Shown: piece after piece, positions 10,798 to 30,454 of the stretch
How the letters are laid out: each line of letters starts with the position of its first letter
How positions within the stretch are numbered: the stretch's first letter is position 1
Origin: Escherichia coli
GTDB taxonomy: Bacteria; Pseudomonadota; Gammaproteobacteria; Enterobacterales; Enterobacteriaceae
Direction: 5' to 3' (one strand)
Assembly (NCBI RefSeq): GCF_009931435.1
Contig: NZ_CP043414.1
DNA length: 64,000 bases
Translations under genes and position numbers: made by a program
Notes under the pieces: model-generated
The model's input: the letters and a program-made list of their open reading frames with translations, nothing else
Databases searched by the model: none
What the model was told of the DNA's origin: nothing

Positions 10798-11341
10798 ATC
10801 CACTCTGTACGAACCTGTCCTGCATTTATGCCAGAAGTATTAGAATCTTTGCTTAACGTTACTCATACAGTAGCACCTTCATGTGCCTCTCTTTTTTACG
10901 AAAAATCAAAAGAGCTAACAAAAGTCATTCTTCGCATGAATCATTAATTATTTGTTATTTTCAACATTATTTTTACATTAAGCATATATGAATTGCAGTG
11001 AAATTCGACTTAACTTTTATGAAATGCATTTACTCATGGCTAAAGCCACGTCACAAAAATGCAAATTAGAAGTTGATCACAATTATCTCAATCCATCAAA
11101 TCAAGTTAATTTTAAAAATTTAACATCCATGACATTAGTTGACATAACACGCTGAATTAAAATGAGAATTTAAAAAAACACTTTAAACAATCATTTCCCG
11201 AAAGACATTTTGAAAATAGATCAATTGCAACATTACGGTCAGATAAAGACACTCCTCTGATATTAAACCTGTGCCGTTATGAACGGCCATAAATACGACG
11301 TGTGTAACTTAATTTACTCTCTGTCTTACAAAGGATTACCC

Positions 11342-11791
11342 ATGAAGAAAGCAACACTTGTGATTGGCGTTATTGGCGCGGACTGCCATGCAGTAGGCAA
11401 TAAAGTTCTGGACCGCGTTTTTAGCAACCATGACTTCAGAGTCATTAATCTGGGCGTAATGGTCAGCCAGGACGAATATATTGATGCTGCCATTGAAACT
11501 GGCGCTGACGCGATTGTCGTCTCCTCTATCTATGGGCATGGCGATATCGATTGTCTGGGCATGCGCGAACGCTGCATCGAGCGTGGGCTGGGTAACATCC
11601 TGCTCTATGTGGGCGGTAACCTGGTGGTCGGAAAACATGACTTCGCTGACGTGGAAACCAAGTTCAAAGAGATGGGATTTGATCGCGTCTTTTCCCCAAG
11701 TCATGACTTAGAAGATGTTTGTCAGCTGATGGCCCACGATATCAACCAACGTCATGACGTTGATACTCGCATTCTTGAAGAGGCAATCTGA
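11342..11791 (+). CDS. glmS: Glutamate mutase sigma (S) subunit, B12-binding (methylaspartate mutase small subunit)
   Basis: [24 protein letters not shown]... carries the DxHxxG cobalamin-binding motif and aligns by eye with clostridial GlmS/MutS; start at 11342 chosen over the track's 11279 because of the RBS. Confidence 0.85.
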
Positions 11792-13179: not shown

Positions 13180-13197
13180 CAATTAAGGCTGCAATCA

Positions 13198-14643
13198 ATG
13201 GAACTTCGAAATAAGAAATTAACCCATGACGAATTCATGACCGAGCGGCAACAGGTATTGAAAACCTGGGAAACCGGCAAGGATGTTGAAAACTTTGAAG
13301 ATGGCGTTAAATACCAACAAACCATTCCTGAGCATAAACGCTTCTCTCTTGCCCTGCTGAAAGCAGACAAGGAAGGTAAAACCCTTAGCCAACCGCGCGC
13401 AGGCGTGGCGCTGATGGACGAACACATCGAACTACTGAAAACACTACAAGAAGAGTGCGATCTGCTGCCGAGCACTATCGATGCATATACCCGTCTGAAT
13501 CGGTACGAAGAAGCTGCTGTAGGGATTAAAAAATCCATCGAAGCCGGAACCTCTAAACTGAACGGTTTACCGGTAGTTAACCACGGCGTCGCAGCTTGCC
13601 GTCGCCTCACCGAAACTCTGCAAAAACCGCTACAGATCCGCCACGGCACGCCAGATGCGCGTCTGCTGGCTGAAATCTCGATGGCCAGCGGCTTTACCAG
13701 TTATGAAGGCGGCGGCATTTCCTACAATATTCCGTATGCCAAGCGCGTAACGCTGGAAAAATCGATCCGCGACTGGCAGTACTGCGATCGTTTAATGGGG
13801 ATGTACGAAGAACACGGGATCCGCATCAACCGCGAACCGTTTGGCCCACTAACGGGTACGCTGATCCCGCCGTTTATCTCGCACTCTATCGCAATAATCG
13901 AAGGCTTGCTGGCACTGGAACAGGGTGTGAAGTCTATCACCGTTGGTTATGGTCAGGTCGGTAGCCTGACGCAGGATGTTGCGGCGATCCAGTCTCTGCG
14001 GGAACTTGCACACGAATATTTTCAGAGCTATGGCTATACCGACTACGAATTAAGTACCGTGTTTCACCAGTGGATGGGAGGCTTTCCGGAGGACGAATCG
14101 AAAGCGTTCGCCATTATCTCCTGGGGTGCTGCAGTCGCGGGGATGTCTGGTGCTACCAAAGTCATCACCAAAAGTCCGCACGAAGCCTGGGGCATCCCGA
14201 CTGCTGCTGCCAACATTCAGGGGCTAAAAGCCTCCCGCCAGATGCTCAACATGGTCAACGAGCAGAAATTCCCGCCGTGCCCGGCGGTTGAACTAGAAAT
14301 TGAACTGATTAAGAGCGAGGTTCGCGCTGTACTGAACAAAGTGTTCGAACTGGGTAATGGTGATATTGCGCGCGGTACGGTGCTGGCATTTGAAGCGGGC
14401 GTACTGGATGTGCCGTTTGCACCAGCCGCCTGCAACGCGGGCAAAATTCTTCCGGTCCGTGACAACACCGGCGCGATACGCGTACTGGAAGCCGGAGCCG
14501 TTCCATTGCCAAAAGATATTCTCGACCTCCACCACGATTACGTTGCGGAACGCGCGCGCTTTGAAGGACGCCAACCGACATTCCAGATGGTTGTAGATGA
14601 CATCAATGCTGTATCCCACAGTAAATTAATAGGAAGACCATAA
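13198..14643 (+). CDS. glmE: Glutamate mutase epsilon (E) catalytic subunit
   Basis: 481 aa; MELRNKK...QPRAGVALMDEHIELL...PSTIDAYTR...GGGISYNIPYAK matches recalled Clostridium GlmE along its length. Confidence 0.9.
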   Translation: MELRNKKLTHDEFMTERQQVLKTWETGKDVENFEDGVKYQQTIPEHKRFSLALLKADKEGKTLSQPRAGVALMDEHIELLKTLQEECDLLPSTIDAYTRLNRYEEAAVGIKKSIEAGTSKLNGLPVVNHGVAACRRLTETLQKPLQIRHGTPDARLLAEISMASGFTSYEGGGISYNIPYAKRVTLEKSIRDWQYCDRLMGMYEEHGIRINREPFGPLTGTLIPPFISHSIAIIEGLLALEQGVKSITVGYGQVGSLTQDVAAIQSLRELAHEYFQSYGYTDYELSTVFHQWMGGFPEDESKAFAIISWGAAVAGMSGATKVITKSPHEAWGIPTAAANIQGLKASRQMLNMVNEQKFPPCPAVELEIELIKSEVRAVLNKVFELGNGDIARGTVLAFEAGVLDVPFAPAACNAGKILPVRDNTGAIRVLEAGAVPLPKDILDLHHDYVAERARFEGRQPTFQMVVDDINAVSHSKLIGRP

Positions 14644-15884
14644 TGAAAATAAAACAGGCCCTTTTTACCGCTGGCTACTCCTCATTCTATTTCGATGATC
14701 AGCAGGCGATAAAAAACGGAGCGGGTCACGACGGCTTTTTCTACACCGGAGAGCCGGTAACACAGGGGTTTAACGCCGTACGTCAGGCCGGGGAGTGCGT
14801 TTCGGTTCAGTTGATTCTGGAAAACGGTGCGGTCGCCGTAGGTGACTGTGCTGCCGTACAGTATTCCGGGGCAGGCGGTCGCGATCCACTGTTCCTCGCA
14901 GAGCACTTTATTCCGTTCCTCAACGACCATATCAAGCCATTACTGGTAGGCCGCGATGTGGATGCTTTCCTGCCGAATGCCCGTTTCTTCGACAAATTGC
15001 GTATTGACGGCAACTTGCTGCATACCGCCGTACGTTACGGATTATCACAGGCGCTGCTTGATGCTACCGCGCTGGCAACCGGCCGTCTGAAAACTGAAGT
15101 GGTCTGTGATGAATGGCAGTTGCCACGCGTGGCGGAATCCATTCCATTATTTGGTCAGAGCGGCGACGATCGATATATCGCCGTCGATAAGATGATCCTT
15201 AAGGGCATCGACGTGCTGCCCCATGCGCTGATTAATAACGTCGAAGAGAAACTGGGCTTTAAAGGTGAAAAACTGCGCGAATATGTCCGCTGGTTGTCAG
15301 ATCGCATTCTGAGCAAGCGCACCAGCGCACGCTACCACCCTACCCTGCACATCGATGTATACGGCACTATCGGTCTGATCTTCGATATGGATCCGCTTCG
15401 CTGTGCGCAATACATCGCCAGTCTGGAAAAAGAGGCGCAAGGCCTGCCGCTCTACATTGAGGGGCCGGTCGATGCCGGTAACAAGCCCGATCAAATCCGC
15501 CTGCTGACCGCGATTACCAAAGAGCTGACGCGCCTCGGTTCCGGCGTGAAAATCGTGGCCGATGAATGGTGTAACACCTACCAGGATATTGTTGATTTCA
15601 CTGATGCCGCCAGTTGCCACATGGTGCAAATCAAAACCCCGGATCTGGGCAGTATTCACAACATCGTCGATGCAGTTCTTTATTGCAACAGCCACAGCAT
15701 GGAAGCGTACCAGGGCGGCACCTGCAATGAAACTGATGTCAGTGCCCGCACCTGTGTCCACGTCGCCCTTGCTGCTCGCCCCATGCGTATGCTGGTAAAA
15801 CCAGGGATGGGCTTTGACGAAGGCCTCGATATCGTCTTCAACGAAATGAATCGTACTATCGCGCTGTTGCAGGCTAAGGATTAA
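14643..15884 (+). CDS. mal: 3-Methylaspartate ammonia-lyase (methylaspartase)
   Basis: 413-aa enolase-superfamily ORF (MKIKQALFTAGYSSFYFDDQ...), same length as clostridial MAL; start overlaps the glmE stop. Confidence 0.85.
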   Translation: MKIKQALFTAGYSSFYFDDQQAIKNGAGHDGFFYTGEPVTQGFNAVRQAGECVSVQLILENGAVAVGDCAAVQYSGAGGRDPLFLAEHFIPFLNDHIKPLLVGRDVDAFLPNARFFDKLRIDGNLLHTAVRYGLSQALLDATALATGRLKTEVVCDEWQLPRVAESIPLFGQSGDDRYIAVDKMILKGIDVLPHALINNVEEKLGFKGEKLREYVRWLSDRILSKRTSARYHPTLHIDVYGTIGLIFDMDPLRCAQYIASLEKEAQGLPLYIEGPVDAGNKPDQIRLLTAITKELTRLGSGVKIVADEWCNTYQDIVDFTDAASCHMVQIKTPDLGSIHNIVDAVLYCNSHSMEAYQGGTCNETDVSARTCVHVALAARPMRMLVKPGMGFDEGLDIVFNEMNRTIALLQAKD

Positions 15885-15887
15885 CAA

Positions 15888-17258
15888 ATGGCTCGTTCTT
15901 TTAAAGTCTTATCGCCAACGGCAATCCTCGGGTATGGATTCCCGGAAGAGAGCTTCCGCAAAGCGATGGCAGAATCGCCCGATCTGATCGCCGTTGATGC
16001 AGGCTCTTCCGATCCTGGCCCCCACTACCTCGGGGCGGGCAAACCGTTTACCGATCGCGCAGGGGTCAAGCGCGATCTGCGCTATATGATCACCGCAGGC
16101 GTGCAAAATAATATACCGGTGGTGATCGGAACGGCCGGCGGTTCTGGTGCCGCTCCACACCTGGAGTGGTGCCGAGAAATAATTCATGAGATTGCCCGGG
16201 AAGAGCACCTCGCGTTCTCGATGGCGCTGATCCCGGCAGACGTTGACAAAGCCATCGTCCACCAGGCGCTGGATAACGGCAAAATCACAGCGCTGGATTT
16301 TGTCCCGCCGTTAACCCACGACGCGATTGACGAAAGTACGTATATCGTCGCGCAAATGGGCATCGAACCCTTCCAGCAGGCGCTGAAAGAAGGCGCGCAA
16401 GTGGTGCTGGGCGGGCGCGCTTACGACCCGGCCTGCTTTGCTGCGCTACCGATCATGCAAGGCTTTGATGAAGGTCTGGCGCTGCATTGTGGGAAAATCC
16501 TTGAATGCGCGGCAATCGCCGCAACGCCCGGCTCAGGCTCTGACTGTGCGATGGGCATCATTGATGACAACGGCTTTACGCTGAAGACATTTAATCCGAA
16601 GCGTAAATTTACCGAAACGTCAGCGGCTGCACACACACTGTATGAGAAATCCGATCCCTACTTCCTGCCAGGACCTGGCGGCGTGTTGAACCTGAAAGGC
16701 TGCACATTTAAAGCGGTCAATGACGGCGAAGTGTACGTCAGCGGTTCTAAGCATGAAGAAACGCCGTATGCCCTGAAACTGGAAGGTGCGCGGCGGGTGG
16801 GCTTCCGCTGTCTGACCATCGCAGGAACGCGCGACCCGATCATGATCGCCGGGATCGATAAAATCATCGATGAAGTCAAAACCAGCGTTTCGCGTAACCT
16901 GTCGCTCGACGATGACAGCATTCGCATCAATTTCCACCTGTACGGCAAAAACGGGGTGATGGGCGACCATGAACCGATGCAAACTGCCGGGCATGAGCTG
17001 GGGATTGTCCTTGATGTAGTTGCACCGACCCAGGATATTGCCAATAGCGTTTGCTCGCTGGTGCGCTCTACCATGCTGCACTACGGCTATGAAAACCGCA
17101 TCGCTACCGCAGGCAACCTGGCGTTCCCGTTCTCCCCTTCTGATATCCAGGGCGGGCCGGTATACGAATTTTCCATATATCACCTGATTGAAGCCAACGA
17201 CGCTCTGCGTTTTGATTTCCATATTGAACAGGTGACGCCAGAAGGAGTTCAGGCATGA
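15888..17258 (+). CDS. DUF1446 (AtuA-like) family protein, function unknown
   Basis: 456-aa ORF tightly linked downstream of mal; sequence resembles the acyclic-terpene-utilisation AtuA-like family as recalled. Confidence 0.6.
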   Translation: MARSFKVLSPTAILGYGFPEESFRKAMAESPDLIAVDAGSSDPGPHYLGAGKPFTDRAGVKRDLRYMITAGVQNNIPVVIGTAGGSGAAPHLEWCREIIHEIAREEHLAFSMALIPADVDKAIVHQALDNGKITALDFVPPLTHDAIDESTYIVAQMGIEPFQQALKEGAQVVLGGRAYDPACFAALPIMQGFDEGLALHCGKILECAAIAATPGSGSDCAMGIIDDNGFTLKTFNPKRKFTETSAAAHTLYEKSDPYFLPGPGGVLNLKGCTFKAVNDGEVYVSGSKHEETPYALKLEGARRVGFRCLTIAGTRDPIMIAGIDKIIDEVKTSVSRNLSLDDDSIRINFHLYGKNGVMGDHEPMQTAGHELGIVLDVVAPTQDIANSVCSLVRSTMLHYGYENRIATAGNLAFPFSPSDIQGGPVYEFSIYHLIEANDALRFDFHIEQVTPEGVQA

Positions 17259-17572
17259 AACAGTCAATTGTCTCACTGGCGCAAGTCATTCGTTCGAAAA
17301 ATGCCGGACCTTACGAACTGGTTTTAGATATTTTATTTAAAACGAAAGAAAACTATGAGCGAGTAAAATCATCAGGGCAATTAACCCCAGAACTGATTGC
17401 GCGCTTATATCATGTTGAACCTGACTTTATTCATCGTATTGTCTGGTTTGATCCTTCTAACGCAGTAAAAATTGTCATGCCACGAGATATTATCTCCGGG
17501 AATGTAGGTGACAATGATGTCTATGGCGCACAGCAACATGCACCTTTATTAAATATGAGTTTCGATTTGTAA
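17255..17572 (+). CDS. DUF4387-family small protein (partner of DUF1446 proteins)
   Basis: 105-aa ORF overlapping the previous stop by 4 nt (translational coupling). Confidence 0.55.
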   Translation: MKQSIVSLAQVIRSKNAGPYELVLDILFKTKENYERVKSSGQLTPELIARLYHVEPDFIHRIVWFDPSNAVKIVMPRDIISGNVGDNDVYGAQQHAPLLNMSFDL

Positions 17573-17732
17573 AAATCCGAACACTTTTAGCCAACTGACA
17601 TCCCGTCACTTATTGCAGCTCAACACTTCAGCTATTTGTAAGGTTGTTATAGCAGGTAGATGCCTGAATCTCTATTCAGGCATCCACTTCTCCTGATTCT
17701 GATTTATCGCCGTGCACCTGATGGAGGAAAAA

Positions 17733-19013
17733 ATGAAGAAAATAAGTTTAACCACGATGATTCTTTTGGCGCTGGTACTTGGAATGATTATCGGCGTAGT
17801 GCTCAATAACACTGCTTCACCGGAAACAGCAAAACTCTATGCGCAAGAAATATCGATATTCACGACGATTTTCTTACGACTGATAAAAATGATTATCGCT
17901 CCGTTAGTGGTCTCTACCCTGGTGGTAGGTATTGCTAAAATGGGCGATGCCAAAGCCCTTGGTCGTATTTTTTCTAAAACACTCTTTTTATTTATTTGCG
18001 CCTCATTGCTGTCAATTGCCTTAGGCTTGATAACGGTAAATTTCTTCATGCCAGGCACAGGAATTAATTTTGTTGCACACGGTGCCGAAACCACCGGAGT
18101 GGTCGCGTCAGAACCCTTTACACTAAAAGTATTTATTTCGCATGCTTTCCCCACCAGCATTGTCGATGCCATGGCGCACAATGAAATTTTGCAAATCGTG
18201 GTGTTCTCAATTTTCCTCGGCTGTAGCCTGACGGCGATTGGTGAGAAAGGCAGCGCCATCGTTCACGCCTTAGATTCGCTGGCACATGCCATGTTAAAGC
18301 TCACTGGCTACGTCATGCTCTTCGCTCCCCTGACCGTATTCGCCGCTATTTCAGCATTGATTGCTGAACGAGGACTGGCAGTTATGGTGAGCGCCGGGAT
18401 CTTTATGGGTGAATTTTATTTCACCATGTTATTACTTTGGGTGCTGCTTATCGGTCTGGCCATCGTTTATGTCGGCCCCTGCATCAGACGCCTGACCCGC
18501 GCCCTTTCAGAACCCGCCCTGCTGGCATTTACCACATCCAGTTCTGAAGCTGCTTTTCCGGGAACGCTTGAAAAACTGGAGCAATTTGGCGTTTCCCCCA
18601 AAATTGCCAGCTTTGTCTTACCCATTGGCTACTCATTTAATCTCGTTGGATCAATGGCCTACTGCTCCTTCGCCACAGTTTTCATCGCCCAGGCCTGCAA
18701 TATCCATTTATCCATCGGTGAGCAAATCACCATGCTGTTGATCCTGATGTTGACCTCGAAAGGAATGGCTGGCGTACCACGCGCCTCAATGGTGGTTATC
18801 GCCGCCACGCTCAACCAGTTCAATATTCCGGAAGCGGGGCTGATCTTGCTGATGGGCGTTGATCCGTTCCTTGATATGGGGCGTTCCGCGACAAACGTCA
18901 TGAGCAACGCAATGGGCGCTGCGATGGTGAGTCGGTGGGAAGGCGAACATTTCGGCGAGGGCTGTCGGGGTAAAGCATTAAAACCCAATGAATCGAACGT
19001 TGCTCTGCCCTGA
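17733..19013 (+). CDS. Dicarboxylate/amino acid:cation symporter (DAACS, GltP-like); putative glutamate or C4/C5-dicarboxylate uptake
   Basis: About 426-aa polytopic membrane protein with DAACS-like sequence; GGAGG upstream of the ATG at 17733 (track ORF starts at 17712). Confidence 0.75.
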   Translation: MKKISLTTMILLALVLGMIIGVVLNNTASPETAKLYAQEISIFTTIFLRLIKMIIAPLVVSTLVVGIAKMGDAKALGRIFSKTLFLFICASLLSIALGLITVNFFMPGTGINFVAHGAETTGVVASEPFTLKVFISHAFPTSIVDAMAHNEILQIVVFSIFLGCSLTAIGEKGSAIVHALDSLAHAMLKLTGYVMLFAPLTVFAAISALIAERGLAVMVSAGIFMGEFYFTMLLLWVLLIGLAIVYVGPCIRRLTRALSEPALLAFTTSSSEAAFPGTLEKLEQFGVSPKIASFVLPIGYSFNLVGSMAYCSFATVFIAQACNIHLSIGEQITMLLILMLTSKGMAGVPRASMVVIAATLNQFNIPEAGLILLMGVDPFLDMGRSATNVMSNAMGAAMVSRWEGEHFGEGCRGKALKPNESNVALP

Positions 19014-19120
19014 GGGGGATCTTAAGCAATCAGAAGCCAATGACTACGCATTTTTATAAGCCGGATCATGAAGTTAGACGGCAATTAAGTAACACTAACG
19101 TTTAAGGTGAAAAGTGAAAT

Positions 19121-20773
19121 ATGTCCAAACCATTTATCTGGCAAGAACCGTTTCTACAAAATAAAGACGGTACAGAATATACATTAATTAGCGATCAACA
19201 TATTACAGTAACGGAATTAGACGGCGAAGAAGTAATAAAAATCGCTCCTGAAGCATTAACGCTGCTTGCCCGGCAGGCATTTTATGAAGCCTCTTTTTTC
19301 TTACGTTCCGCTCATTTGCAACAGGTCGCCAGCATTCTTAACGATCCGCAGGCCAGCAGTAATGATAAATACGTTGCGTTGCAGTTATTACGTAATGCTG
19401 AAGTCTCAGCAAAAGGGGTATTACCCAACTGTCAGGATACCGGCACCGCAACTATTGTTGCCAGTAAAGGGCAACAGATATGGACGGGAGGTAACGACGC
19501 TGAAGCCTTAAGCAAAGGCATTTACAGTACTTTCCAGGAAAATAATCTGCGCTTTTCACAAAATGCGCCGCTGGATATGTATACCGAAGTCAATACGCAA
19601 ACCAATCTTCCGGCGCAGATTGATATCAGCGCTGTCGCTGGTAATGAGTACCATTTTCTCTGTGTTAATAAAGGGGGCGGCTCCGCCAATAAAGCCGCAC
19701 TTTATCAGGAAACCAAATCCTTATTGCAACCAGAAAAACTGACCGCATTTTTAATCGACAAAATGAAATCGTTGGGCACGGCCGCCTGCCCGCCCTACCA
19801 CATCGCCTTTGTCGTCGGAGGGCTTTCAGCCGATCAAACCTTAAAAGTTGCCAAGCTGGCCTCTACGAAATATTACGACAATTTGCCCACCAGCGGAAAC
19901 GAGCAGGGACAAGCATTCCGTGATATTGAGCTGGAAAAAGCGTTGCTCGAGGCCAGTCAGCAATTTGGTATTGGTGCGCAATTTGGGGGTAAATATTTCG
20001 CTCATGATATTCGCGTCATTCGTCTGCCGCGTCACGGTGGCTCTTGCCCGATAGCTATGGCGCTCTCCTGTTCTGCCGATCGCAATATCAAAGCAAAAAT
20101 TAACAAGCATGGTATCTGGCTGGAAAAACTCGAACACAATCCGGGGCAATATATTCCAGCCTCACTGCGGGAAGAAAATCACGCGCAACATGTACAGCTG
20201 GATCTAAACCGTCCGTTGCGTGACGTGATGCAGGATCTCGCCAGATTACCGGTAGGTACCCGCGTGTCGTTAAGTGGTCCCATCGTAGTGGCGCGCGATA
20301 TCGCCCACGCAAAAATAAAAGCGCGGCTGGATAGCGGCGAATCGATGCCGGATTACCTGAAGCATCATATTGTCTATTACGCTGGCCCGGCGAAAACACC
20401 GGAGAACATGGCCTGCGGTTCACTGGGTCCAACCACGGGCGGTCGAATGGACGGTTATGTCGAAACCTTCCAGGCGGCTGGCGGCAGTCTGGTAATGTTA
20501 TCGAAAGGTAACCGCAGCCAGCAGGTCACCGATGCCTGTCACAAACATGCAGGCTTCAATCTGGGAAGTATTGGCGGTGCAGCTGCGTTACTGGCGCAAG
20601 AATATGTCAAAAGTCTGCGTTGCCTGGAATACCCGGAGCTGGGTATGGAGGCGGTGTGGATGATGGAAGTGGAAAATCTGCCCGCATTCATCCTGGTTGA
20701 TGATAAAGGCAATAATTTCTTTAGCCAGTTTGAGCAGCAACACCGCTGCGCCAGTTGCCCTGCGGGACATTAA
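19121..20773 (+). CDS. fumD: Class I (Fe-S) fumarate hydratase family; probable mesaconase/fumarase
   Basis: 550-aa FumA/FumB-like ORF (..[10 protein letters not shown]..); its position in a glutamate mutase/methylaspartase cluster suggests mesaconate hydratase. Confidence 0.8.
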
Positions 20774-20782
20774 GGAAAATGA

Positions 20783-21385
20783 ATGGAAGCGCGAATTTCA
20801 ACTGAACGGCATGTGCAGCGCCAACAGAAATTGAAGGAACAGGTCGATACGCGCGTCGCGGCGGCGATAGAGAAAAAAGGGATCTTGATTGTTTTCACCG
20901 GCAACGGCAAAGGGAAATCCACTGCCGCGTTTGGTACTGTGACGCGCGCGGTGGGTCATGGCAAAACGGTGGGGGTTGCGCAGTACATCAAGGGGCAATG
21001 GGACAACGGCGAATACAACCTTCTCCAGCCGCTGGGGGTTGAGTTTCATATTATGGGAACCGGTTTTACCTGGGAGACTCAGAACCGGCAAGCGGATATC
21101 GACGCGGCGAAAGAGGTCTGGTCGGAAAGCAAACGGATGCTGGCTGACAAGCGTTACGACTTAGTGGTGCTTGATGAGCTGACCTATATGCTGGCTTACC
21201 ATTATCTGGACACCGAAGAAGTGATCACTTCTCTGCAAAACCGCCCGGCACAACAAAGTGTCATTGTCACCGGACGCAGTTGCCACAGTCAGATATTAAA
21301 AATGGCGGATACGGTCAGCGAAATCCGCCCCGTCAAACATGCTTTTGATAACGGCATTCAGGCGCAGCCGGGTATCGACTGGTAA
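20783..21385 (+). CDS. Cob(I)yrinic acid a,c-diamide / corrinoid adenosyltransferase (CobA/BtuR/CobO family)
   Basis: 200-aa ORF with P-loop GNGKGKSTAAFG; would supply adenosylcobalamin for glutamate mutase. Confidence 0.8.
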   Translation: MEARISTERHVQRQQKLKEQVDTRVAAAIEKKGILIVFTGNGKGKSTAAFGTVTRAVGHGKTVGVAQYIKGQWDNGEYNLLQPLGVEFHIMGTGFTWETQNRQADIDAAKEVWSESKRMLADKRYDLVVLDELTYMLAYHYLDTEEVITSLQNRPAQQSVIVTGRSCHSQILKMADTVSEIRPVKHAFDNGIQAQPGIDW

Positions 21386-21418
21386 TAACTGCGCCTGGCA
21401 TCCAGCCAGGCGCAGGTT

Positions 21419-22324
21419 TTACATCTCCTGCGGTACGACCGATTTCGCCAGCAACCATTCACGAAATTGCTGCAAGTGCGGCGAGTCAGACTTCTCTTCC
21501 TGCCACGTCATAATAAAACGATTACCGGTACGAATAGGCACATCACAGGGAATCACCATATCGCCACTATCCAAATCATGTTGAATAGCGAACCGTGGTA
21601 ACAGCGCCACGCCGAGATTAGAGCGCACGGCGGCAATCAGCATTGAAAGCAAATCGAAACGTGGTCCGTTATTGACCAGCGGACTGCTAACGCCAGATAA
21701 AGCAAACCACTCTTCCCAGCCAGTAATACGGGTGCTTTGATGCAGAAGTGGTAACTCAGTAAGCAGTTCTGCCACTGACAGTTTTTGATCGGACATTGCA
21801 AGCAAACTGCCGCTGCATACCGGCAAAATCTCCTCTTCAAAGAGATATTCTACTTCCGCCCAGGGCGCGCAAAAATTTTCGCGCATAATGACAGCATCGT
21901 ACTCCCGATTAAGAAAATCGCCGTTATTAGCTAAAGAATGAATATTAACAATAATATCGGGATGTAACTTTGTGAATTCATGTAAATTTGGGATTAACCA
22001 GTGGGTACTAAACGTAGGATTAACGGCAAGTTCAATAACCTGAACCGTAGGCTGCCAGGTCATAATCGTATTGGTATCGCGCTCCAATTTATTTAATGTT
22101 TCTTTTACTATCCCCAGGTAATACTTCCCTGCATCATTAAGAAAAATGCGTTTTTTAGAGTGTGAAAATAACGGAGTATGTAAAAATTCCTCCAACGCAC
22201 TTACTTGTCTGAATACTGCACTTTGGGTTAACGCTAACTCCTCTGCCGCTCTGGTATAACTTTCATGACGTGCGACGACCTCAAAAGTCACCAGCAGCTC
22301 CGTTTTAGGTATTTTTCCTCGCAT
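21419..22324 (-). CDS. LysR-family transcriptional regulator
   Basis: 301 aa; N-terminal HTH (LLVTFEVVARHESYTRAAEELALTQSAVFRQVSALE) plus substrate-binding domain. Confidence 0.85.
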   Translation of the reverse strand: MRGKIPKTELLVTFEVVARHESYTRAAEELALTQSAVFRQVSALEEFLHTPLFSHSKKRIFLNDAGKYYLGIVKETLNKLERDTNTIMTWQPTVQVIELAVNPTFSTHWLIPNLHEFTKLHPDIIVNIHSLANNGDFLNREYDAVIMRENFCAPWAEVEYLFEEEILPVCSGSLLAMSDQKLSVAELLTELPLLHQSTRITGWEEWFALSGVSSPLVNNGPRFDLLSMLIAAVRSNLGVALLPRFAIQHDLDSGDMVIPCDVPIRTGNRFIMTWQEEKSDSPHLQQFREWLLAKSVVPQEM

Positions 22325-22471
22325 AATGCCGTCCCTTAAAAATAGTTTAAACCATCAAAAATACATTACTTATTACGAAGTAATGGTAACCAAAGCAGCA
22401 ATAAATAATTTATAAGAATCATGATTAACATTTATAACCCAGTAAGCCTGGCGTGACAATTATCTTAATCA

Positions 22472-22509
22472 GATAATAATAATCCGAAAAGCACAGCACC
22501 TTTCGGATT
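22472..22509 (-). terminator. Hairpin downstream of the hut-like operon (candidate terminator)
   Basis: atccgaaa-N-tttcggat inverted repeat in the AT-rich spacer between the HAL-like gene and the LysR gene. Confidence 0.4.
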
Positions 22510-22594
22510 ATCAGGAATTACATTAAGTGAAAATTATTAAATTGATATCATTTATCATATCTGTGGATATAATGATAAACAATCAACATAGATT

Positions 22595-24265
22595 TTATTT
22601 TTGATTTATAGCATATCCCTCTAAGAATTTTTGCGATGCTTCAATATCCGGGGTAAAGACCCGATCCTGACTGACAAATGGCACGACTTGACGATAAGCG
22701 GTGAACATCGCTTTTGTTGATTTGCCTAACGCCAGCTGTGGATCGGCTTGCAAGCGCAAATCAATCGCCTGGGCAGAATGCATCAGTTCAATGCCATAAA
22801 TGACATTCAAATTATCAACAACCTGTTTCAATCTTCTCGCCGCGTGGTCGTTATTGGCACCCGTATCTTCAATGCCTCCGGCTACCGGTTGAATATCGAA
22901 AGAAACCGGGTTAGCGAGATCGACATTTTCCGCATGCAGCGCAACAAACGGGATATGTAATGAACCGAAGCCATGACCTTTATTACCTGCTGCCGACAGG
23001 AAGCGTGACAAACCGGTAAAGTGATCATCTTCAAGATGCAGCGAGCGGCGCATACTGTTATGTGAAACATGCACTAACGCCACGGTCAGACGCTGGGTGG
23101 CAAGCGCAACCGGTAACGATTCGAAATTCGCCGTCGGGAAGATCCCACCGCTGATTGCCCCATCTTTAACAAAATATTGCGCGACCTGACTGGAGTCCTG
23201 ATACGCTTTGTCTGCATTCAGCACGGTTGCCGGGTTGTCATCGGAACTGTTGATCTGCACGGTAATGGTATCTTCAGCATCGCGCAACGCGCGCATTGCC
23301 TCAGAAATGGTATACACCGTCGTTCTGAACGATAACGGATCCTGCAATGCACGTTTGTCATCCTTATGCCATAAATAAGAACCACTTAACGCATCGCGAA
23401 TCTCTTTAGCGGAATCAGCCAACTGCGGGAAAGGACGCACGGCGATCGACTGCGGCAGTACCGGCGCGACATTGCCATTCAACGCTTCGAGGCTCATGGC
23501 GAAAACCACCGGACTGACATTCAGCACCTGGCGTGCCGACCGTACCGCTTCAATTGCATATGCTGTTCCGACACTGTTGTTCGACAAAATCGCCAGCATA
23601 TCTTTACCCTGCGGGACCAGTGGTTTAAGCCCCACTTTCACCAGCGCATCGCCACCACTCATTTCCACGCCATTAACCCGCGCTTTCCACTCGCCCATCA
23701 TCACCAGACCAACGTGTGAAGCGAGCATAATATCCGCTGCGCCGATACTTCCCCGCGCCGGAATTAACGGCGTAACGCCTCGATTAATAAACTCGGCATA
23801 CAACTCGGCAATATAAGGCTGCGCGCCGGTTTGCCCATGCAACATAGTATTTAAACGTAACACCATTGAGAGACGGGCAAGATAATCCGGCAACATCGGA
23901 CCGACGCCCGCAGAATGGGCGCGCAGCGCGGCAGCATTAAATTTTTTCGATGCGTCAATCACCTCAGGCGTTAAATTTCCTTTGGCATCAAATATGGGCT
24001 GATCTTTATTTAGCCCCACGCCCACGGTTAAGCCATAAACAGGCGTACCTGAATGCGCGGCAGTCATCACCAGATCATAACTTTTTTCCATGCGCTCCAT
24101 GGCGTTCGACGCGATTTTGACGCCGTTATCACCTAATGCAATTGACCAGGCCTGGTCAATAGAGAGATGTTCGCCATCCAGCGTAATGGTTGATTTTGCC
24201 ATCGCGATGGAGCAAACGCTCCAGAGCACAACGGTGACAGTGACTCTGCGTATCAATCCTTTCAT
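22595..24265 (-). CDS. Histidine ammonia-lyase-like protein (aromatic amino acid lyase fold) with N-terminal signal peptide and no Ala-Ser-Gly MIO triad
   Basis: 556 aa; MKGLIRRVTVTVVLWSVCSIAMA|KS signal-like N-terminus; region aligning to the HAL GSxGASGDLAPL motif reads GSIGAADIMLASH. Confidence 0.7.
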   Translation of the reverse strand: MKGLIRRVTVTVVLWSVCSIAMAKSTITLDGEHLSIDQAWSIALGDNGVKIASNAMERMEKSYDLVMTAAHSGTPVYGLTVGVGLNKDQPIFDAKGNLTPEVIDASKKFNAAALRAHSAGVGPMLPDYLARLSMVLRLNTMLHGQTGAQPYIAELYAEFINRGVTPLIPARGSIGAADIMLASHVGLVMMGEWKARVNGVEMSGGDALVKVGLKPLVPQGKDMLAILSNNSVGTAYAIEAVRSARQVLNVSPVVFAMSLEALNGNVAPVLPQSIAVRPFPQLADSAKEIRDALSGSYLWHKDDKRALQDPLSFRTTVYTISEAMRALRDAEDTITVQINSSDDNPATVLNADKAYQDSSQVAQYFVKDGAISGGIFPTANFESLPVALATQRLTVALVHVSHNSMRRSLHLEDDHFTGLSRFLSAAGNKGHGFGSLHIPFVALHAENVDLANPVSFDIQPVAGGIEDTGANNDHAARRLKQVVDNLNVIYGIELMHSAQAIDLRLQADPQLALGKSTKAMFTAYRQVVPFVSQDRVFTPDIEASQKFLEGYAINQK

Positions 24266-24315
24266 TGTGTTTCCTTATTTTGATGAGTTTAACAACGGAT
24301 TACTGCAACAACCTC

Positions 24316-25266
24316 TTAATTTGTTTTATCTGTTTTTCCTCGACGGACAATAGTGGCAGCCAGGCGAGCGGCAACCTTCGCGGTCAAATTATCGCGGTCC
24401 AAATCTGGGTTCAGTTCGGCAATATCCGCAGCAATCAACTTCTCGCTACCGGCAATTAAATTCACAATAGCCTCAGCAATATTTAATGGCACGCCTAACG
24501 GCGAAGGCGCAGAAACGCCAGGAGCCTGATAACCCGGTAAGACATCAAGACAAATCGTTAAATAAATGGCGTCACACGCCTGAATATCTGCCGAGAGCGC
24601 ATTAACAATCTCATGCAAACCACGTTCAAATTGCAGAGATTCATCCAGCCAATAACGCACACCAGGACAATCAGCACGATCAAATAACGCCTGAGTGTTG
24701 GCATAACGGCTTATTCCCAGCACGCGATAATGAAACGGTTTGCCATGCTGCGCATTCCACTCCTGCATCTGCCGAAACGGCGTACCCGAATTGGCCTTTT
24801 CCGCCATCCGCAAATCAAAATGCGCGTCAAGGTTGACTATCAGCAGTCGCCGAATATCCGGACGCGACTGCATAATCCCCTGAAATGTTCCCCATGCCAC
24901 TTCATGACCGCCGCCCAGAACGACCGGCAAACTGCCGCGCGCAATTGCCATAGCCACGTTTTCCGCCAGACGGTTTTGTGCGGGTTCCAGCGCGTGGTCT
25001 TCGCTTTGCACGTCACCCATGTCAAAAATAGCGCCTTCATGGAGCACTGGCATATTGCCCAACATGCTGCGTAATGCGCCCGGTCCGCCTGCTGCGCCCG
25101 CTCGCCCACCGTTACGTTGCACCCCGTCATCGACGGCAAAACCAATCAGCGTACTGCCTCCATGACTTTGTTCGGTAAACGGTTTTACATGCTGATGCCA
25201 GCGGGTGCTGACGCCAGTTTCCTGCGAGTCAACACGTCCACTCCATGCCATAAATGTTTGCTTCAT
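24316..25266 (-). CDS. hutG: Formimidoylglutamase (arginase-family HutG)
   Basis: Arginase/ureohydrolase-like ORF; start placed at MKQTFMAWSG so the ATG overlaps the hutI stop. Confidence 0.75.
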   Translation of the reverse strand: MKQTFMAWSGRVDSQETGVSTRWHQHVKPFTEQSHGGSTLIGFAVDDGVQRNGGRAGAAGGPGALRSMLGNMPVLHEGAIFDMGDVQSEDHALEPAQNRLAENVAMAIARGSLPVVLGGGHEVAWGTFQGIMQSRPDIRRLLIVNLDAHFDLRMAEKANSGTPFRQMQEWNAQHGKPFHYRVLGISRYANTQALFDRADCPGVRYWLDESLQFERGLHEIVNALSADIQACDAIYLTICLDVLPGYQAPGVSAPSPLGVPLNIAEAIVNLIAGSEKLIAADIAELNPDLDRDNLTAKVAARLAATIVRRGKTDKTN

Positions 25267-26477
25267 TACCAACTCCTTTTTCCGCCGACAATCAGCCCCA
25301 GACAAGGCTGATGTCCAAACCAGTAAGCCAGCTCACGCGGATGATTAAGATCCCAAACAGCCATATCCGCCCGTAGTCCCGGCGCAAGTTCACCCCGATC
25401 AACAAGTCCAAGCGCTTTTGCCGCATGACGTGTAACGCCCTGAACGGCTTCCAGCGGGGTCATGTGAAACAGCGTACAGGCCATATTGATCATCAACTGC
25501 AATGACATGTTGGGAGACGTTCCGGGGTTATGATCCGTGGAGATGGCAATCGGCACACCTGCGGCCCGCAGAGCGACAATCGGCGGCAGATGGGTTTCGC
25601 GCAGGAAGTAATAAGCACCGGGAAGCAAAACCGCCACTGTTCCAGCCGCTTTCATGGCGGCGATCCCCGACTCGCTCAGGTACTCCAGATGATCGCAGGA
25701 GAGTGCAGAAAACGCCGCTGCCAGCGCCGCGCCTTGCTGGTCAGAAAGCTGTTCGGCATGCAGTTTTACAGGTAATCCATAGCTTTGCGCTTTACTGAAA
25801 ACGCGCCGTACCTGCTCTGGAGTAAAGGCGATGTTTTCACAAAAAGCATCAACTGCATCAATCAGCCCCTGTTCATGCAACACGCACATCCAGTCGCAAA
25901 GCGCCGTAATGTAATCATCACTGCGCCCGGCAAACTCTGGCGGCAGGCTGTGCGCCCCGAGAAACGTAGACTGAATATGTAACCCGGTAGATTGCTGCAA
26001 GCGGCGGATCACGCGTAAACAACGCGCTTCATCTTCCAGCGTTAAGCCATAACCCGATTTGATTTCAAGCGTACTGACGCCTTCACGTTGCCAGTTTCGC
26101 AGTCGCTGCGCCGCCAGTTCAAACAGCTGTGTTTCGCTGGCTGCCCGCGTGGCATTAACCGTAGATAAGATCCCGCCGCCCGCTCTGGCGATATCTTCAT
26201 AAGCCACGCCTTGCAACCGCATCTCAAACTCGTTCGCCCTCTGGCCGCCATACACCAGATGTGTATGACAATCTACCAGACCGGGTGTCAGCAACTTACC
26301 CTGTAGATCGTGTTCTTCTGTAATATCAGCCGTCAGTTCACGGGGGATCTGCGTGGCCTTCCCAAGCCAGACAATCGAGTCACCGCGGCTGATTAATGCA
26401 CCGTTTTCAATCACCCCCCAATCATTAGCCGAAAGCGTCGTCAGGGTGGTATTTCGCCAGAGCGTAAATGCACTCAT
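25266..26477 (-). CDS. hutI: Imidazolonepropionase
   Basis: Amidohydrolase ORF with DCHTHLVYGG metal-binding motif; start at MSAFTLW overlapping the hutD stop. Confidence 0.85.
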   Translation of the reverse strand: MSAFTLWRNTTLTTLSANDWGVIENGALISRGDSIVWLGKATQIPRELTADITEEHDLQGKLLTPGLVDCHTHLVYGGQRANEFEMRLQGVAYEDIARAGGGILSTVNATRAASETQLFELAAQRLRNWQREGVSTLEIKSGYGLTLEDEARCLRVIRRLQQSTGLHIQSTFLGAHSLPPEFAGRSDDYITALCDWMCVLHEQGLIDAVDAFCENIAFTPEQVRRVFSKAQSYGLPVKLHAEQLSDQQGAALAAAFSALSCDHLEYLSESGIAAMKAAGTVAVLLPGAYYFLRETHLPPIVALRAAGVPIAISTDHNPGTSPNMSLQLMINMACTLFHMTPLEAVQGVTRHAAKALGLVDRGELAPGLRADMAVWDLNHPRELAYWFGHQPCLGLIVGGKRSW

Positions 26478-27064
26478 AAGGATTTTTCCCCTCGTAGATA
26501 ATAAATCCACCAACCCGCCAGCTCGCCGACGGAGACTTTTTGCTGTGGTACGAAACGCCAGGAGTTGCCATCAGGCGCAAACCGCCATAACAACGTATTC
26601 GCCGTTACAAACACCCTGTTCTCGCCGCTTATCCACTCCCCTTCACACAGCGTGAACAGCCCCGCTTGCGCATGCGCCGGAGGGAGCCAGTCAATGACGC
26701 TTTGCACACGACGCATCCCCGCATCGCCTTCCCGCGCCATAATATTCAGATCGCGAACCCCGCCGCCCAGCAGCTGACAATCAGGCATTGCTTCTCCAGG
26801 GAAAATTAAGGCGGGATCGTGACGTTGCAGGTTGATGATCGAATCGGCAAACGTTAGCTTCACCCCTTCCCCGTCGAGGATCGCGAGGCCACGAACCACG
26901 CCAGGCCACGCTGAAAAAGGGCCATCCTGACTGACATTCGCCATACTGATGCGCAACAACCAGTTTTCATCATCGGGCCAGGCAAGCAGCTGTCGGGTAA
27001 ACCCCCCGCCGTTGCGCCACGGTTGCAGCGGCTTATCCATTGCAGAAATCAGCATCGGTTCCAT
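26474..27064 (-). CDS. hutD: HutD-family protein
   Basis: 196-aa ORF (..PWRNGGGFTRQL..) resembling HutD; embedded in the hut cluster. Confidence 0.65.
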   Translation of the reverse strand: MEPMLISAMDKPLQPWRNGGGFTRQLLAWPDDENWLLRISMANVSQDGPFSAWPGVVRGLAILDGEGVKLTFADSIINLQRHDPALIFPGEAMPDCQLLGGGVRDLNIMAREGDAGMRRVQSVIDWLPPAHAQAGLFTLCEGEWISGENRVFVTANTLLWRFAPDGNSWRFVPQQKVSVGELAGWWIYYLRGEKSL

Positions 27065-27065
27065 A

Positions 27066-28475
27066 TTAAGACTCGGGATAAATCGTATAAGCAGGAACGC
27101 AGGTGGTGCGTTTGGCCCACGGGTAATAGATAACGGCGGTAATTAACAAGCCGACAATCCAGGAGATATCCGCCCCATCCATCAGGACAGAAATGGGTCC
27201 CTGATACAGTTTTTGATTCAGGAAGGGGATCTGCACCAACACGCCTACGCCATAGCACGTCAAAGCGGTTTTGTTATACGCGCCATAACGCCCTTCCGGG
27301 GTATAAAGCGCTGGAATATCGGTTTTACCTTGTGAGATGAAGTAATAATCGATGAGATTAATGGCACTCCACGGAACAAATACCGTCAACAGTAGCAGAA
27401 CGAAGTTTTTGAAATTATTCAAAAAATCTGCGCTTGCCGCCAGCGCGACGACCATCGACAACAGCACGAACCCTACAACGTAGGCAGCACGAACACGCTG
27501 TGAAACCTGACTGCGATCATTAAAGGCGCTGACGGTCGCCAGAATCGACATAAAGCCACCGTAGGCATTCAAACAGTTCACCGTCAGTTTGCCGCAAACA
27601 ATCACCATATAAATCAGAATGGCGAAGGTGGGTCCGGCTAACTCGCCCATAAAACCAACCTGATCCTTCAGGAAGTTAGCACCACAGGCCGCAACAAGTA
27701 CGCCAAACGTCATGGCACATTGCGCACCAAGCGTGGTTCCCAGAAAGGTGGCAAAGAAGATTGATTTTGCTGGCGTATCAGAGGGTAAATAGCGGGAATA
27801 ATCAGAGGCGTAAGGGGCAAACGTTAATTGCCATCCGGCAGAGAGAGCAATCGTTAATAAAAAGACCGACAGACTAAATGGCTTTTGACCAAATGCCGCA
27901 GCCACATCGTAGTGACCGCTAAGTTGAGTGGCCAGGTAAATAAACCCCAGAATACTTAATATCCCTGCAACACGGCCAACGACGTGAATTAGTTTATAAC
28001 CGACCAATGCGATCATCGCGGTCAGCATGCCGAAAATAATAATTCCGGTCGATGCCGATTCGAAACCAAATATCCGGTTAATCGCCTGACCGGATAATAC
28101 TGTACCCGTCGCGGCAAATCCAAGGTACATAATAATCACCATCAGTAACGGTAGCGCCGCTCCTTTAACGCCAAAGCGGATACGACTGGAGATCATCTGG
28201 GGTAATCCCAGCTTTGCCCCCTGCGACGAGTGCAATGCCATTACTGCACCACCAATAATATTACCGATTAATAAACCAATTATTGCTGACATAGCTTCGG
28301 AGCCAAAAATAATCGCTAACGCGCCGTCCACCACTGCGGTAATTTGTAAGTTAGCACTTAGCCATAAAGTAAACTGACTAGATGGCGCGCCGTGGCGAGC
28401 AGACTCAGGAACGGCGTTAATCGTATTTGATTCTAATACTGGCTTTTTACTGCGGATAGGGCTGCTTGATTCCAT
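27066..28475 (-). CDS. NCS1-family (cytosine/purine/uracil/allantoin-type) permease; candidate histidine/urocanate/imidazole-compound importer
   Basis: Polytopic membrane ORF; start set at MESSSP with AGGAGA RBS (track ORF starts at 28520). Confidence 0.7.
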   Translation of the reverse strand: MESSSPIRSKKPVLESNTINAVPESARHGAPSSQFTLWLSANLQITAVVDGALAIIFGSEAMSAIIGLLIGNIIGGAVMALHSSQGAKLGLPQMISSRIRFGVKGAALPLLMVIIMYLGFAATGTVLSGQAINRIFGFESASTGIIIFGMLTAMIALVGYKLIHVVGRVAGILSILGFIYLATQLSGHYDVAAAFGQKPFSLSVFLLTIALSAGWQLTFAPYASDYSRYLPSDTPAKSIFFATFLGTTLGAQCAMTFGVLVAACGANFLKDQVGFMGELAGPTFAILIYMVIVCGKLTVNCLNAYGGFMSILATVSAFNDRSQVSQRVRAAYVVGFVLLSMVVALAASADFLNNFKNFVLLLLTVFVPWSAINLIDYYFISQGKTDIPALYTPEGRYGAYNKTALTCYGVGVLVQIPFLNQKLYQGPISVLMDGADISWIVGLLITAVIYYPWAKRTTCVPAYTIYPES

Positions 28476-28638
28476 GAAAAAGTCTCCTGCAAAATGAGAG
28501 GTCATTTTTTGAAACAGCAATAGAGGGTCGGGAGATATTTTTCTCGACGATGTAAAAATATTTTTTGATAATTATTGTTATACAGGCGAATTATTCTCCG
28601 CCTGTATTAGCGCAAATATTAAATGACGGCGTTAATAT

Positions 28639-30336
28639 TTAGCGAATCATCGGTAATTTCAGACCATAGTTTTTGGCACATTCAATTGCCGCTTCATAAC
28701 CCGCATCCGCATGACGCATAACCCCGGACGCACAGTCATTCACCAGCACACGCGCCAGACGTTTTTCGGCTTCTTCGCTACCATCGGCAACAATAACCAT
28801 CCCGGCGTGTTGTGAATACCCCATCCCGACGCCGCCGCCATGATGCAGGGATACCCACGTTGCTCCCCCTGCAGTGTTGAGCAAACCGTTGAGCAACGGC
28901 CAGTCAGAAACCGCATCACTGCCATCAAGCATGCTTTCGGTTTCGCGGTTCGGGCTGGCGACAGAACCGGTATCAAGATGATCGCGCCCAATCACAATCG
29001 GTGCTTTTAGTTCACCGTTGCGCACCATTTCGTTGAATGCCAGCCCCGCCAGGTGACGCTCACCAAGCCCCAGCCAGCAAATACGTGAAGGAAGTCCCTG
29101 GAAGGCAATGCGCTCGCGCGCCATATCCAGCCAGCGATGCGTCAGTACGTTATTGGGGAACAACTCTTTAATTTTGGCATCGGTTTTATAGATATCTTCC
29201 GGGTCGCCAGACAGCGCCACCCAACGGAATGGACCTTTGCCTTCACAAAACATTGGACGAATATAAGCCGGAACAAAGCCCGGGAAATCAAAGGCATTTT
29301 GCAGACCTTCGTTGAAGGCCACCTGGCGGATGTTGTTGCCATAATCGACAACCGGGATCCCCATCGCCTGGAAGTCCAGCATCCCCTGAACATGTGCGAC
29401 GCAGCTCTGTGCCGCTTCTTTTTGCAATCTGGCGTGTTGCTGTGGATCCTGCTGTGCAGCGCGCCATTGTTCTACGCTCCAGCCCATCGGTAGGTAGCCA
29501 TAAACCAGATCGTGAGCGGAAGTCTGGTCGGTTACCAGATCCGGCTTAATCGCCCCCTGATGCGCACGTTTCACCAGCTCAGGAACAATTTCCGCCGCAT
29601 TGCCCAACAGCGCGATTGAAACAGCGTCTTTGCGCTCGGTATGGTATTTAATCAGCGCCAGTGCATCATCAAGATCTTTCGCTTGTTTATCGACATAACG
29701 GGTACGCAGTCGGAAGTCGATGCTACTTTGCTGGCACTCGATATTTAATGAGCACGCCCCCGCCAGAGTCGCCGCCAGCGGTTGTGCGCCACCCATACCA
29801 CCGAGCCCCGCGGTCAGGATCCATTTTCCACTCAGCGAATTGTTGTAGTGCTGACGACCCGCTTCAACAAAGGTTTCGAACGTTCCCTGCACAATGCCCT
29901 GACTACCGATGTAGATCCACGAGCCAGCGGTCATCTGGCCGTACATGAACAGACCTTTACGATCCAGTTCATTGAAATGATCCCAGTTGGCCCATTGCGG
30001 TACCAGGTTAGAGTTGGCAATCAATACGCGCGGCGCATCGGTATGCGTTTTAAACACGCCTACGGGTTTACCGGACTGAACCAGCAGTGACTCATCAGCT
30101 TCCAGATTTTTCAGTGATTCAAGGATCTTGTCAAAACACTCCCAGTTACGTGCCGCACGACCAATACCACCATACACCACCAGATGCTGTGGATTTTCGG
30201 CAACGTCGGGATCAAGGTTGTTCTGCAACATCCGGTAGGCTGCTTCAATTTGCCAGTTTTTGCAGTGCAGCTGCGTACCGTGTGGCGCATGGATTACACG
30301 GCTGGTATCAATACGCGGGTCTGAAGGCTTACTCAT
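28639..30336 (-). CDS. hutU: Urocanate hydratase (urocanase)
   Basis: About 565 aa from [47 protein letters not shown]; AGGAGA RBS upstream; the track ORF extends to 30435. Confidence 0.9.
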
Positions 30337-30454
30337 GAATCTTCTCCTGTTACTTGATAAAATTAAACGCTGTAATCGGTCAGAAAAAACGAACGAATGA
30401 ATATAGAAACGGTTTCTATAATTCCCGTTTATCATTTTGTATTATTAATTCATT

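Follow-up and report, generated by a model that had tools for sequence, protein, structure and literature searches.

The LysR-type regulator gene (lysR) lying at the 3' end of the glm (methylaspartate/mesaconate) operon of E. coli probably encodes a dedicated regulator of the glm cluster, which would act at a conserved box upstream of glmS. The glm operon is proposed as the target because lysR is co-inherited with it, glm genes adjoin lysR throughout the Enterobacterales loci compared, homologues in three betaproteobacteria are divergent from glmS, and the glmS upstream region carries the box. The DNA analyzed (the window) is a stretch of 64,000 nucleotides of the E. coli chromosome located between cydAB and sucABCD, with 99.8% identity to strain R32_14_1F. 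Its relevant features are collected in Table 1.

Table 1. Features of the window bearing on lysR and its candidate targets
Feature	Position	Strand	Description
lysR	21419..22324	minus	ORF with ATG start, 301 aa; Pfam HTH_1 and LysR_substrate
glm operon	11342..21385	plus	glmS-glmL-glmE-mal-DUF1446-DUF4387-gltP-fumD-cobO (Pfam, RefSeq annotation)
hut-like operon	22595..30435	minus	HAL-hutG-hutI-hutD-NCS1 permease-hutU (Pfam, NCBIfam)
Two E. coli-specific ORFs	9273-10295, 10375-10797	plus	No Pfam match; precede glmS
Conserved box (likely LysR site)	11209..11228	plus	TTTGAAAATAGATCAATTGC; 113-132 nt before the glmS ATG; T-N11-A (TGA-N7-TCA)
Second conserved block (possible regulator contact)	11194..11205	plus	TTTnnnSAAGA; ~21 bp upstream of the box center; partly conserved alignment columns
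Third conserved block (possible core promoter part)	11248..11253	plus	RCACAYT; fixed ~20 nt downstream of the box
cobO/lysR hairpin (likely bidirectional terminator)	21389..21415	both strands	GC-rich 11-bp stem, -25 kcal/mol; z -7.4 (plus), -6.5 (minus)
Candidate lysR promoter	22431..22459	minus	TTGTCA, 17 nt, TATAAA; 3' of the HAL/lysR hairpin
HAL/lysR hairpin (probable terminator)	22477..22513	minus	16-bp stem, -19.1 kcal/mol, z -5.06
Weak second box-like match	22573..22586	plus	TGATAAACAATCAA; lysR upstream region, right after the HAL stop codon

An earlier note on this DNA had described lysR as convergent with the 3' end of the mesaconate operon, as lying downstream of the hut-like operon behind a hairpin, and as divergent from neither cluster. 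Each of these points was borne out. The plus-strand cobO gene ends at 21385 and converges with lysR across a gap of 33 bp. The HAL-family gene, on the same strand as lysR, has its stop at 22595, leaving 270 bp (28% GC) up to the lysR ATG, and the hairpin (z -5.1) falls within this region. Beyond the hutU end of the hut-like operon, rtcB is followed by sucDCBA. Divergence from the target operon is common, but not obligatory, in LTTRs. The further claim, that the target cannot be read from the arrangement, holds within the single window, but comparative data (co-occurrence, orthologue context, and the box) point to glm.

The LysR protein has the LTTR architecture, with an N-terminal winged-helix HTH_1 domain (residues 9 to 67, E 7e-18; PF00126, 64.7 bits versus a Pfam cutoff of 26.6), a C-terminal LysR_substrate effector domain (residues 96 to 293, E 4e-28; PF03466, 98.7 bits versus a cutoff of 28), and a length of about 300 aa. 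All LysR orthologues share the N-terminal start MRGKIPK. GcvA was both the best NCBIfam match (NF008352, 221.5 bits) and the top PDB match (8y6u, E 7e-43). Since 221.5 bits is under the curated cutoff of 288, the protein is assigned to a GcvA-like subfamily and is not a GcvA orthologue. It shares its two-domain architecture and length with GcvA, the E. coli glycine-cleavage activator, but the genomic context differs and presumably the effector does too. In kind, lysR is an ordinary pathway regulator, an uncharacterized member of a well-known type.

The gene itself has been drawn before. Kronen and Berg (2015, PLoS One 10:e0145098, PMC4682846) show an "LTTR" in the enterobacterial glutamate-fermentation cluster (their Fig. 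5) and label it a putative LysR-family regulator; their paper contains no target site, distribution analysis, or experiment for it. It characterizes FumD of the glm cluster as a mesaconase and reports that no growth condition was found to induce the cluster in O157:H7. Their LTTR is the gene studied here: two amino acid substitutions separate the O157:H7 copy from that of the window (98.6% nucleotide identity), and both lie after cobO. The strains that they treated do not have the hut-like neighbor, unlike the window, so the target ambiguity does not arise there. Searching the literature for this regulator, its locus tags, or a combined hut and glm pathway in enterobacteria yielded nothing further. 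To this, the present analysis adds the distribution of lysR, its divergent homologues, and a candidate operator. The glm genes form a variable metabolic island that about one-fifth of complete E. coli genomes carry, O157:H7 among them, as do many opportunistic Enterobacterales. Assigning lysR to it, together with a candidate operator, gives a direct experimental handle on when bacteria run the B12-dependent methylaspartate pathway. In other respects the finding is routine, a pathway-specific LysR-type regulator in an unusual position, and of modest interest.

The genomic context of lysR in other species was examined by a profile-guided scan of one genome per species, in which neighbors were identified by tblastn with the window proteins. 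This yielded 24 Enterobacterales loci outside E. coli, with 57 to 87% identity to the window LysR, from Citrobacter, Salmonella, Klebsiella, Raoultella, Buttiauxella, Lelliottia, Pseudescherichia, Escherichia sp., Morganella, Yersinia, Yokenella, and Enterobacter. In all 24, glm genes adjoined lysR; tblastn with the window proteins placed hut genes beside it in none. Thus, lysR is conserved across species as a member of the enterobacterial glm cluster and is co-inherited with glmS/E and mal.

Most of these loci have the E. coli order, in which lysR is convergent with cobO or fumD. The 3' position of lysR is explained by gene-order rearrangement among Enterobacterales, and the rearrangement that placed it there is old, because the 3'-end layout is common to 20 of the 24 other loci. 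Other layouts were observed as well. Two Yersinia species (Y. aldovae and Y. enterocolitica) have lysR divergent from a sumT-GHMP-kinase pair; glmS-glmL-glmE-mal follow about 455 bp on, on the same strand as that pair, and fumD-cobO follow lysR on the lysR strand. The divergent partner of lysR in Yokenella and Enterobacter sp. ENT03 is a FecCD-type ABC-transporter gene, which lies on the glmS strand, about 3.8 kb away. The Citrobacter gene is divergent from sumT, a B12-synthesis gene. The islands of Salmonella, Citrobacter, and Klebsiella carry an extra, PocR-type AraC regulator, which could share control of glm in these genera; the 64-kb window contains neither a PocR-like regulator nor sumT.

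Outside the enterobacteria, Paludibacterium, Azoarcus, and Aromatoleum have a LysR homologue with 45% identity whose gene is directly divergent from glmS, at a distance of 190 to 280 bp. These betaproteobacterial homologues resemble the E. coli LysR no more closely than do paralogues with other neighbors, their nearest neighbors in a neighbor-joining tree are divergent from NAD-glutamate dehydrogenase genes, and their lysR-glmS intergenic regions do not contain the enterobacterial box. They may represent an independent recruitment rather than orthologues. We did not treat them as orthologues, as 41 to 45% identity cannot separate paralogues and only the neighbor-joining tree bears on the question. 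In a large Pseudomonas/Aromatoleum clade, lysR is divergent from genes for an acyl-CoA dehydrogenase and a family III CoA-transferase. Overall, this subfamily is thus associated with the catabolism of glutamate and C5-dicarboxylates.

Evidence for a target also came from the DNA upstream of glmS. We aligned the glmS upstream regions of the window, O157:H7, Salmonella, C. koseri, Pseudescherichia, and Escherichia sp. ESNIH1. The 20-mer TTTGAAAATAGATCAATTGC was invariant in all five of these lineages (the window and O157:H7 both being E. coli), and the rest of the intergenic DNA was nearly unalignable. When the alignment was extended with Yersinia (two species), Budvicia, Morganella, and Yokenella, the element read YYTGAMAATAnATCAATTGY. 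Its ATCAATTG part was invariant in all nine glmS upstream regions, and the left half of the dyad was degenerate, reading TTA in Morganella and TCA in Yokenella. The core of the box, TGAAAATAGATCA, has the T-N11-A form of an LTTR dyad box.

With up to three mismatches allowed, the 20-mer occurs once in the 64 kb, against 0.01 occurrences expected. The pattern TGA-N6-ATCAATTG was detected in 16 of 94 loci and lay upstream of glmS in 13 of the 16, and the box is found once per locus, in glm clusters only. The exact dyad TTGA-N7-TCAA occurs twice in the 64 kb; none was found upstream of hutU, gltP, fumD, or lysR. A search for T-N11-A boxes upstream of glmS and hutU, as the earlier note had proposed, thus returned a conserved box before glmS and nothing comparable before hutU. 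Furthermore, LysR was the one regulator seen in all box-bearing lineages whose cluster regions were covered; the Budvicia locus stops short of the lysR position. Taken together, the box is likely a LysR binding site. Near matches to TTGA-N7-TCAA (7 of 8 positions) in lysR, sumT, and Yokenella intergenic regions were not used, since by our own estimate AT-rich DNA should contain about 0.4 of them per 400 bp.

Two further blocks flank the box. The TTTnnnSAAGA block on its upstream side is a possible second regulator contact, and the RCACAYT block downstream is possibly part of the core promoter. No sigma-70 consensus promoter was found upstream of glmS, as expected for an activator-dependent promoter; the combination of TTGCAA (11225-11230), a 17-nt spacer, and GACACT makes a poor sigma-70 promoter. 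We rejected a riboswitch or another known RNA family in the glmS upstream region or elsewhere in the island, as Rfam gave no match at the gathering threshold in 8000-33000 and none at E values up to 1 in 10700-11400.

The box could instead be bound by another conserved enterobacterial factor. In that case a global enterobacterial regulator, or RNA polymerase using the box as a promoter element, would occupy it, and LysR would act at internal promoters of gltP or fumD, at B12-related genes, or at unlinked loci. This we regard as unlikely, although several features speak for it. The ATCAA in the box resembles an FNR half-site, and the pathway is anaerobic and B12 dependent. TTGCAA within the box and GACACT 17 nt further on could serve as a weak core promoter, and the divergence of lysR from sumT in Citrobacter and Yersinia would fit a role in B12 synthesis. 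However, FNR and CRP sites have the form TGA-N6-TCA, and the TGA-N7-TCA of the box is one base too long for either, which rules out such a site. Nor did the box fit the consensus sites of ArgR, IHF, Nac, or Lrp. A global factor is also hard to reconcile with a box that is restricted to glm clusters, at one copy per locus, and that accompanies lysR in each lineage with coverage of the lysR region. Finally, regulators of the GcdR-like clade have the same TGn-N7-nCA geometry in their upstream regions.

This last likeness connects the glmS box to a characterized system. GcdR is the glutarate-responsive LysR-type activator of gcdH-gcoT in Pseudomonas putida, and its footprinted box is GTGACAAAATATCAC (Zhang et al. 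2019, mBio, PMC6667623). Pseudomonas homologues with the gcdR/gcdH-gcoT gene order have 40 to 45% identity to the window LysR. Upstream of these homologues, the strict pattern GTGA-N7-TCAC was too narrow and gave no match; by inspection, GTGn-N7-nCAC was conserved. Both GTGACAAAATATCAC and the boxes of the GcdR-like clade share the TGn-N7-nCA core and T-N11-A geometry with the glmS box, and they differ from it in the flanks (GTG/CAC versus TTG/CAA). Furthermore, the GcdR effector is a C5-dicarboxylate, chemically near the glm intermediates. The GcdR-like clade is nevertheless separate in the tree and has a divergent gene arrangement, unlike the window lysR.

The sequence around lysR suggests how the gene itself may be expressed. 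The HAL/lysR hairpin was highly stable for its composition (0 of 200 shuffles equally stable). Its tail, AUUAUUAUUAUCUG, is moderately U-rich and was missed by a simple terminator scan, and AUUAUUAUUAU after the hairpin contains no clean U-run. This hairpin is probably the terminator of the hut-like operon, possibly a leaky one. The candidate promoter TTGTCA-17-TATAAA was read by eye; the consensus scan missed it, the last base of the -10 element being A. It is a plausible lysR promoter. At the other end of the gene, the cobO/lysR hairpin is followed on the plus strand by GUUUUAC, and it likely serves as a bidirectional terminator of the convergent cobO and lysR.

On the reading that LysR is dedicated to glm, lysR would have a promoter to itself, located 3' of the hairpin terminating the hut-like operon, and transcription of the gene would stop at the hairpin that it has in common with cobO. 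The protein would bind the T-N11-A box upstream of glmS and possibly also contact the TTTnnnSAAGA block. As effector it would sense a metabolite of the pathway, the most plausible candidates being L-glutamate and C5-dicarboxylates (for example, methylaspartate or mesaconate); we propose this because the subfamily is tied to glutamate and C5-dicarboxylate catabolism. Effector-bound LysR would then activate a glmS promoter that otherwise has no good sigma-70 signals.

The hut-like operon is the other neighbor of lysR, and its distribution across E. coli was compared with those of lysR and glm. A census of 5,426 complete E. coli genomes was conducted with lysR plus flanks, glmE-mal, and hutU-permease as queries. 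The lysR query matched in 1,127 genomes and glmE-mal in 1,131, and hutU-permease matched in 144. In all 144 hut-positive genomes the cobO-lysR-HAL order was that of the window, and the hut-like cluster never occurred without lysR. Conversely, about 980 genomes, or roughly 87% of the lysR carriers, have lysR without hut.

Three configurations were observed in E. coli. The window type is glm-lysR-hut-rtcB-sucD. In O157:H7, glm-lysR is followed by a 138-bp remnant of the 3' end of HAL, rtcB remnants, and sucD; this layout is a deletion derivative that has lost the hut-like cluster. In the MB53 type, an unrelated 465 bp begins 18 bp upstream of the lysR ATG and is followed by rtcB-mngBAR-sucD. The segment that is exchanged for these 465 bp in MB53-type strains corresponds to 22343-30985 of the window and ends 18 bp before the lysR ATG. 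In hut-positive strains, the hut-like segment thus supplies the upstream region of lysR. By blastn, the DNA upstream of the E. coli lysR showed no homology to the 255-bp lysR upstream region conserved in Salmonella, Citrobacter, and Klebsiella. In both hut-less types lysR is intact, with dN/dS values relative to the window copy of 0.05 (O157:H7) and 0.02 (MB53), and it is under strong purifying selection there. By the co-occurrence counts and the intact, low-dN/dS lysR of the hut-less types, lysR is inherited with glm and kept without hut. The hut-like cluster is an E. coli-specific neighbor and not demonstrably LysR regulated.

LysR might nevertheless control both clusters, with hut-like and glm genes forming one regulon and read-through of the leaky hairpin coupling LysR dosage to hut transcription. 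We consider this decidedly unlikely. HutC, a GntR/UTRA repressor, is the canonical and expected regulator of a hutU-hutI-hutG cluster, and Pfam and RefSeq annotation revealed no such GntR/UTRA (HutC-type) gene in the hut-like cluster, leaving it without a regulator of its own. The window LysR is unrelated to HutC: it has neither a GntR HTH with a UTRA domain nor linkage to hut across taxa. A shared regulon would also be in line with the invariable position of the hut-like cluster beside lysR in the 144 E. coli genomes, the hut-derived lysR upstream region, the missing clean U-tract of the hairpin, and the fact that glutamate, the end product of the textbook Hut pathway, is the substrate of glm. 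Moreover, two Aromatoleum homologues (L040 and L048) lie upstream of hutI-hutG-hutU. That linkage looks incidental, however: the conserved divergent partner in their clade is a DUF3422 gene, found in nine loci, and hut is found in two. Further evidence goes against control of both clusters. No glmS-like box was found before hutU or between the permease gene and hutU, and lysR is intact and under purifying selection in the approximately 980 hut-less genomes. Outside E. coli there are no hut-linked orthologues, and relatives of the HAL gene in other taxa do not have such a LysR alongside.

A related, more elaborate scenario, which we hold to be improbable, concerns hut-positive E. coli. Here lysR would be transcribed in part by read-through past the leaky HAL hairpin, so that breakdown of histidine or another imidazole raises LysR levels and at the same time supplies glutamate as the effector. 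The two clusters would then form one anaerobic module that ferments histidine via glutamate to mesaconate and citramalate. Such a module would be comparable to that of Clostridium tetanomorphum, but assembled in E. coli.

That LysR regulates the hut-like operon only, its link to glm being a positional coincidence, is hardly credible: lysR does lie on the hut strand, immediately downstream of an operon without its own regulator, but about 87% of the E. coli genomes with lysR, and all other genera examined, have it together with glm and lack hut, and O157:H7 deleted hut and kept lysR at a dN/dS of 0.05.

The preferred assignment to glm leaves one minor observation in the lysR upstream region. 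The pattern TGA-N6-ATCAA has six matches in the window, against 2.9 expected, and one of them is the box-like match at 22573. This copy is not significant alone and represents a weak lead.

Homologues of the regulator from Propionivibrio, Accumulibacter and other betaproteobacteria (comparison loci L033, L038, L042 and L044) are divergent from genes for large NAD-specific glutamate dehydrogenases of approximately 1,555 to 1,600 aa, an identity confirmed by Pfam for L033 only. This divergent arrangement suggests that gdhB in those betaproteobacteria has an uncharacterised regulator of the LysR type.

Salmonella, Citrobacter and Klebsiella have a gene for a PocR-type AraC regulator in their glm islands, located between sucD and lysR, and approximately 255 bp 5' of lysR are 69 to 80% conserved among the three. 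The islands of Citrobacter and Yersinia additionally contain sumT, which in Yersinia is accompanied by a gene for a GHMP (PduX-like) kinase. Within the glm operon, the DUF1446 (AtuA-like) and DUF4387 gene pair, to which no function is assigned, is kept from E. coli to betaproteobacteria with 55 to 70% identity; this pair was already pointed out by Kronen and Berg (PMC4682846).

Comparison of E. coli genomes revealed three configurations of the island. In O157:H7, a 138-bp piece from the 3' end of HAL persists together with rtcB fragments, and we therefore conclude that the hut genes were lost there by deletion. MB53-type strains contain an unrelated 465 bp, which begins 18 bp 5' of the lysR start codon. 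In the window, rtcB has a 1-nt insertion near 31689 when compared to the intact rtcB of NZ_CP074749 and is split into two overlapping ORFs; it is either a pseudogene or the result of a sequencing error.

The HAL-family lyase (556 aa) scored 277 bits, below the NCBIfam hutH cutoffs (539 bits). Its nearest relatives outside Escherichia are found in a Burkholderiaceae MAG and in Citrobacter werkmanii, where genes for FAD-flavoproteins and multihaem cytochromes adjoin them. These gene neighbours seem to resemble a urocanate-reductase context, and the lyase of the window may belong to a separate clade of anaerobic histidine lyases. The hut-like cluster also encodes HutD and an NCS1-family permease, and Pfam and NCBIfam revealed no HutC/GntR repressor among its genes. 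Its hutU scored above the NCBIfam hutU cutoff and below those for thiourocanate hydratase.

The two ORFs between cydA and glmS have a GC content of 35 to 38% and no Pfam match. The Salmonella locus (L085) and the Pseudescherichia-type loci (L086, L087) have cydA and glmS as immediate, divergently oriented neighbours.

Coordinates of the features and compared regions
Feature	Location	Strand	Remark
ORF, 340 aa	window 9273-10295	+	cydA-glmS interval of E. coli
ORF, 140 aa	window 10375-10797	+	cydA-glmS interval of E. coli
DUF1446-DUF4387 pair	window 15888-17572	+	
Island segment	window 22343-30985		configurations compared
Island segment	L002 13940-14606		configurations compared
Island segment	L003 12940-13530		configurations compared
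HAL-family lyase	window 22595-24265	-	
hut-like cluster	window 22595-30435	-	
rtcB	window 31094-32492	+	
rtcB, first ORF	window 31094-31762	+	
rtcB, second ORF	window 31641-32492	+	
glm-island region	L006 8758-9645		additional island genes
glm-island region	L007 7953-9595		additional island genes
glm-island region	L023 7870-9552		additional island genes
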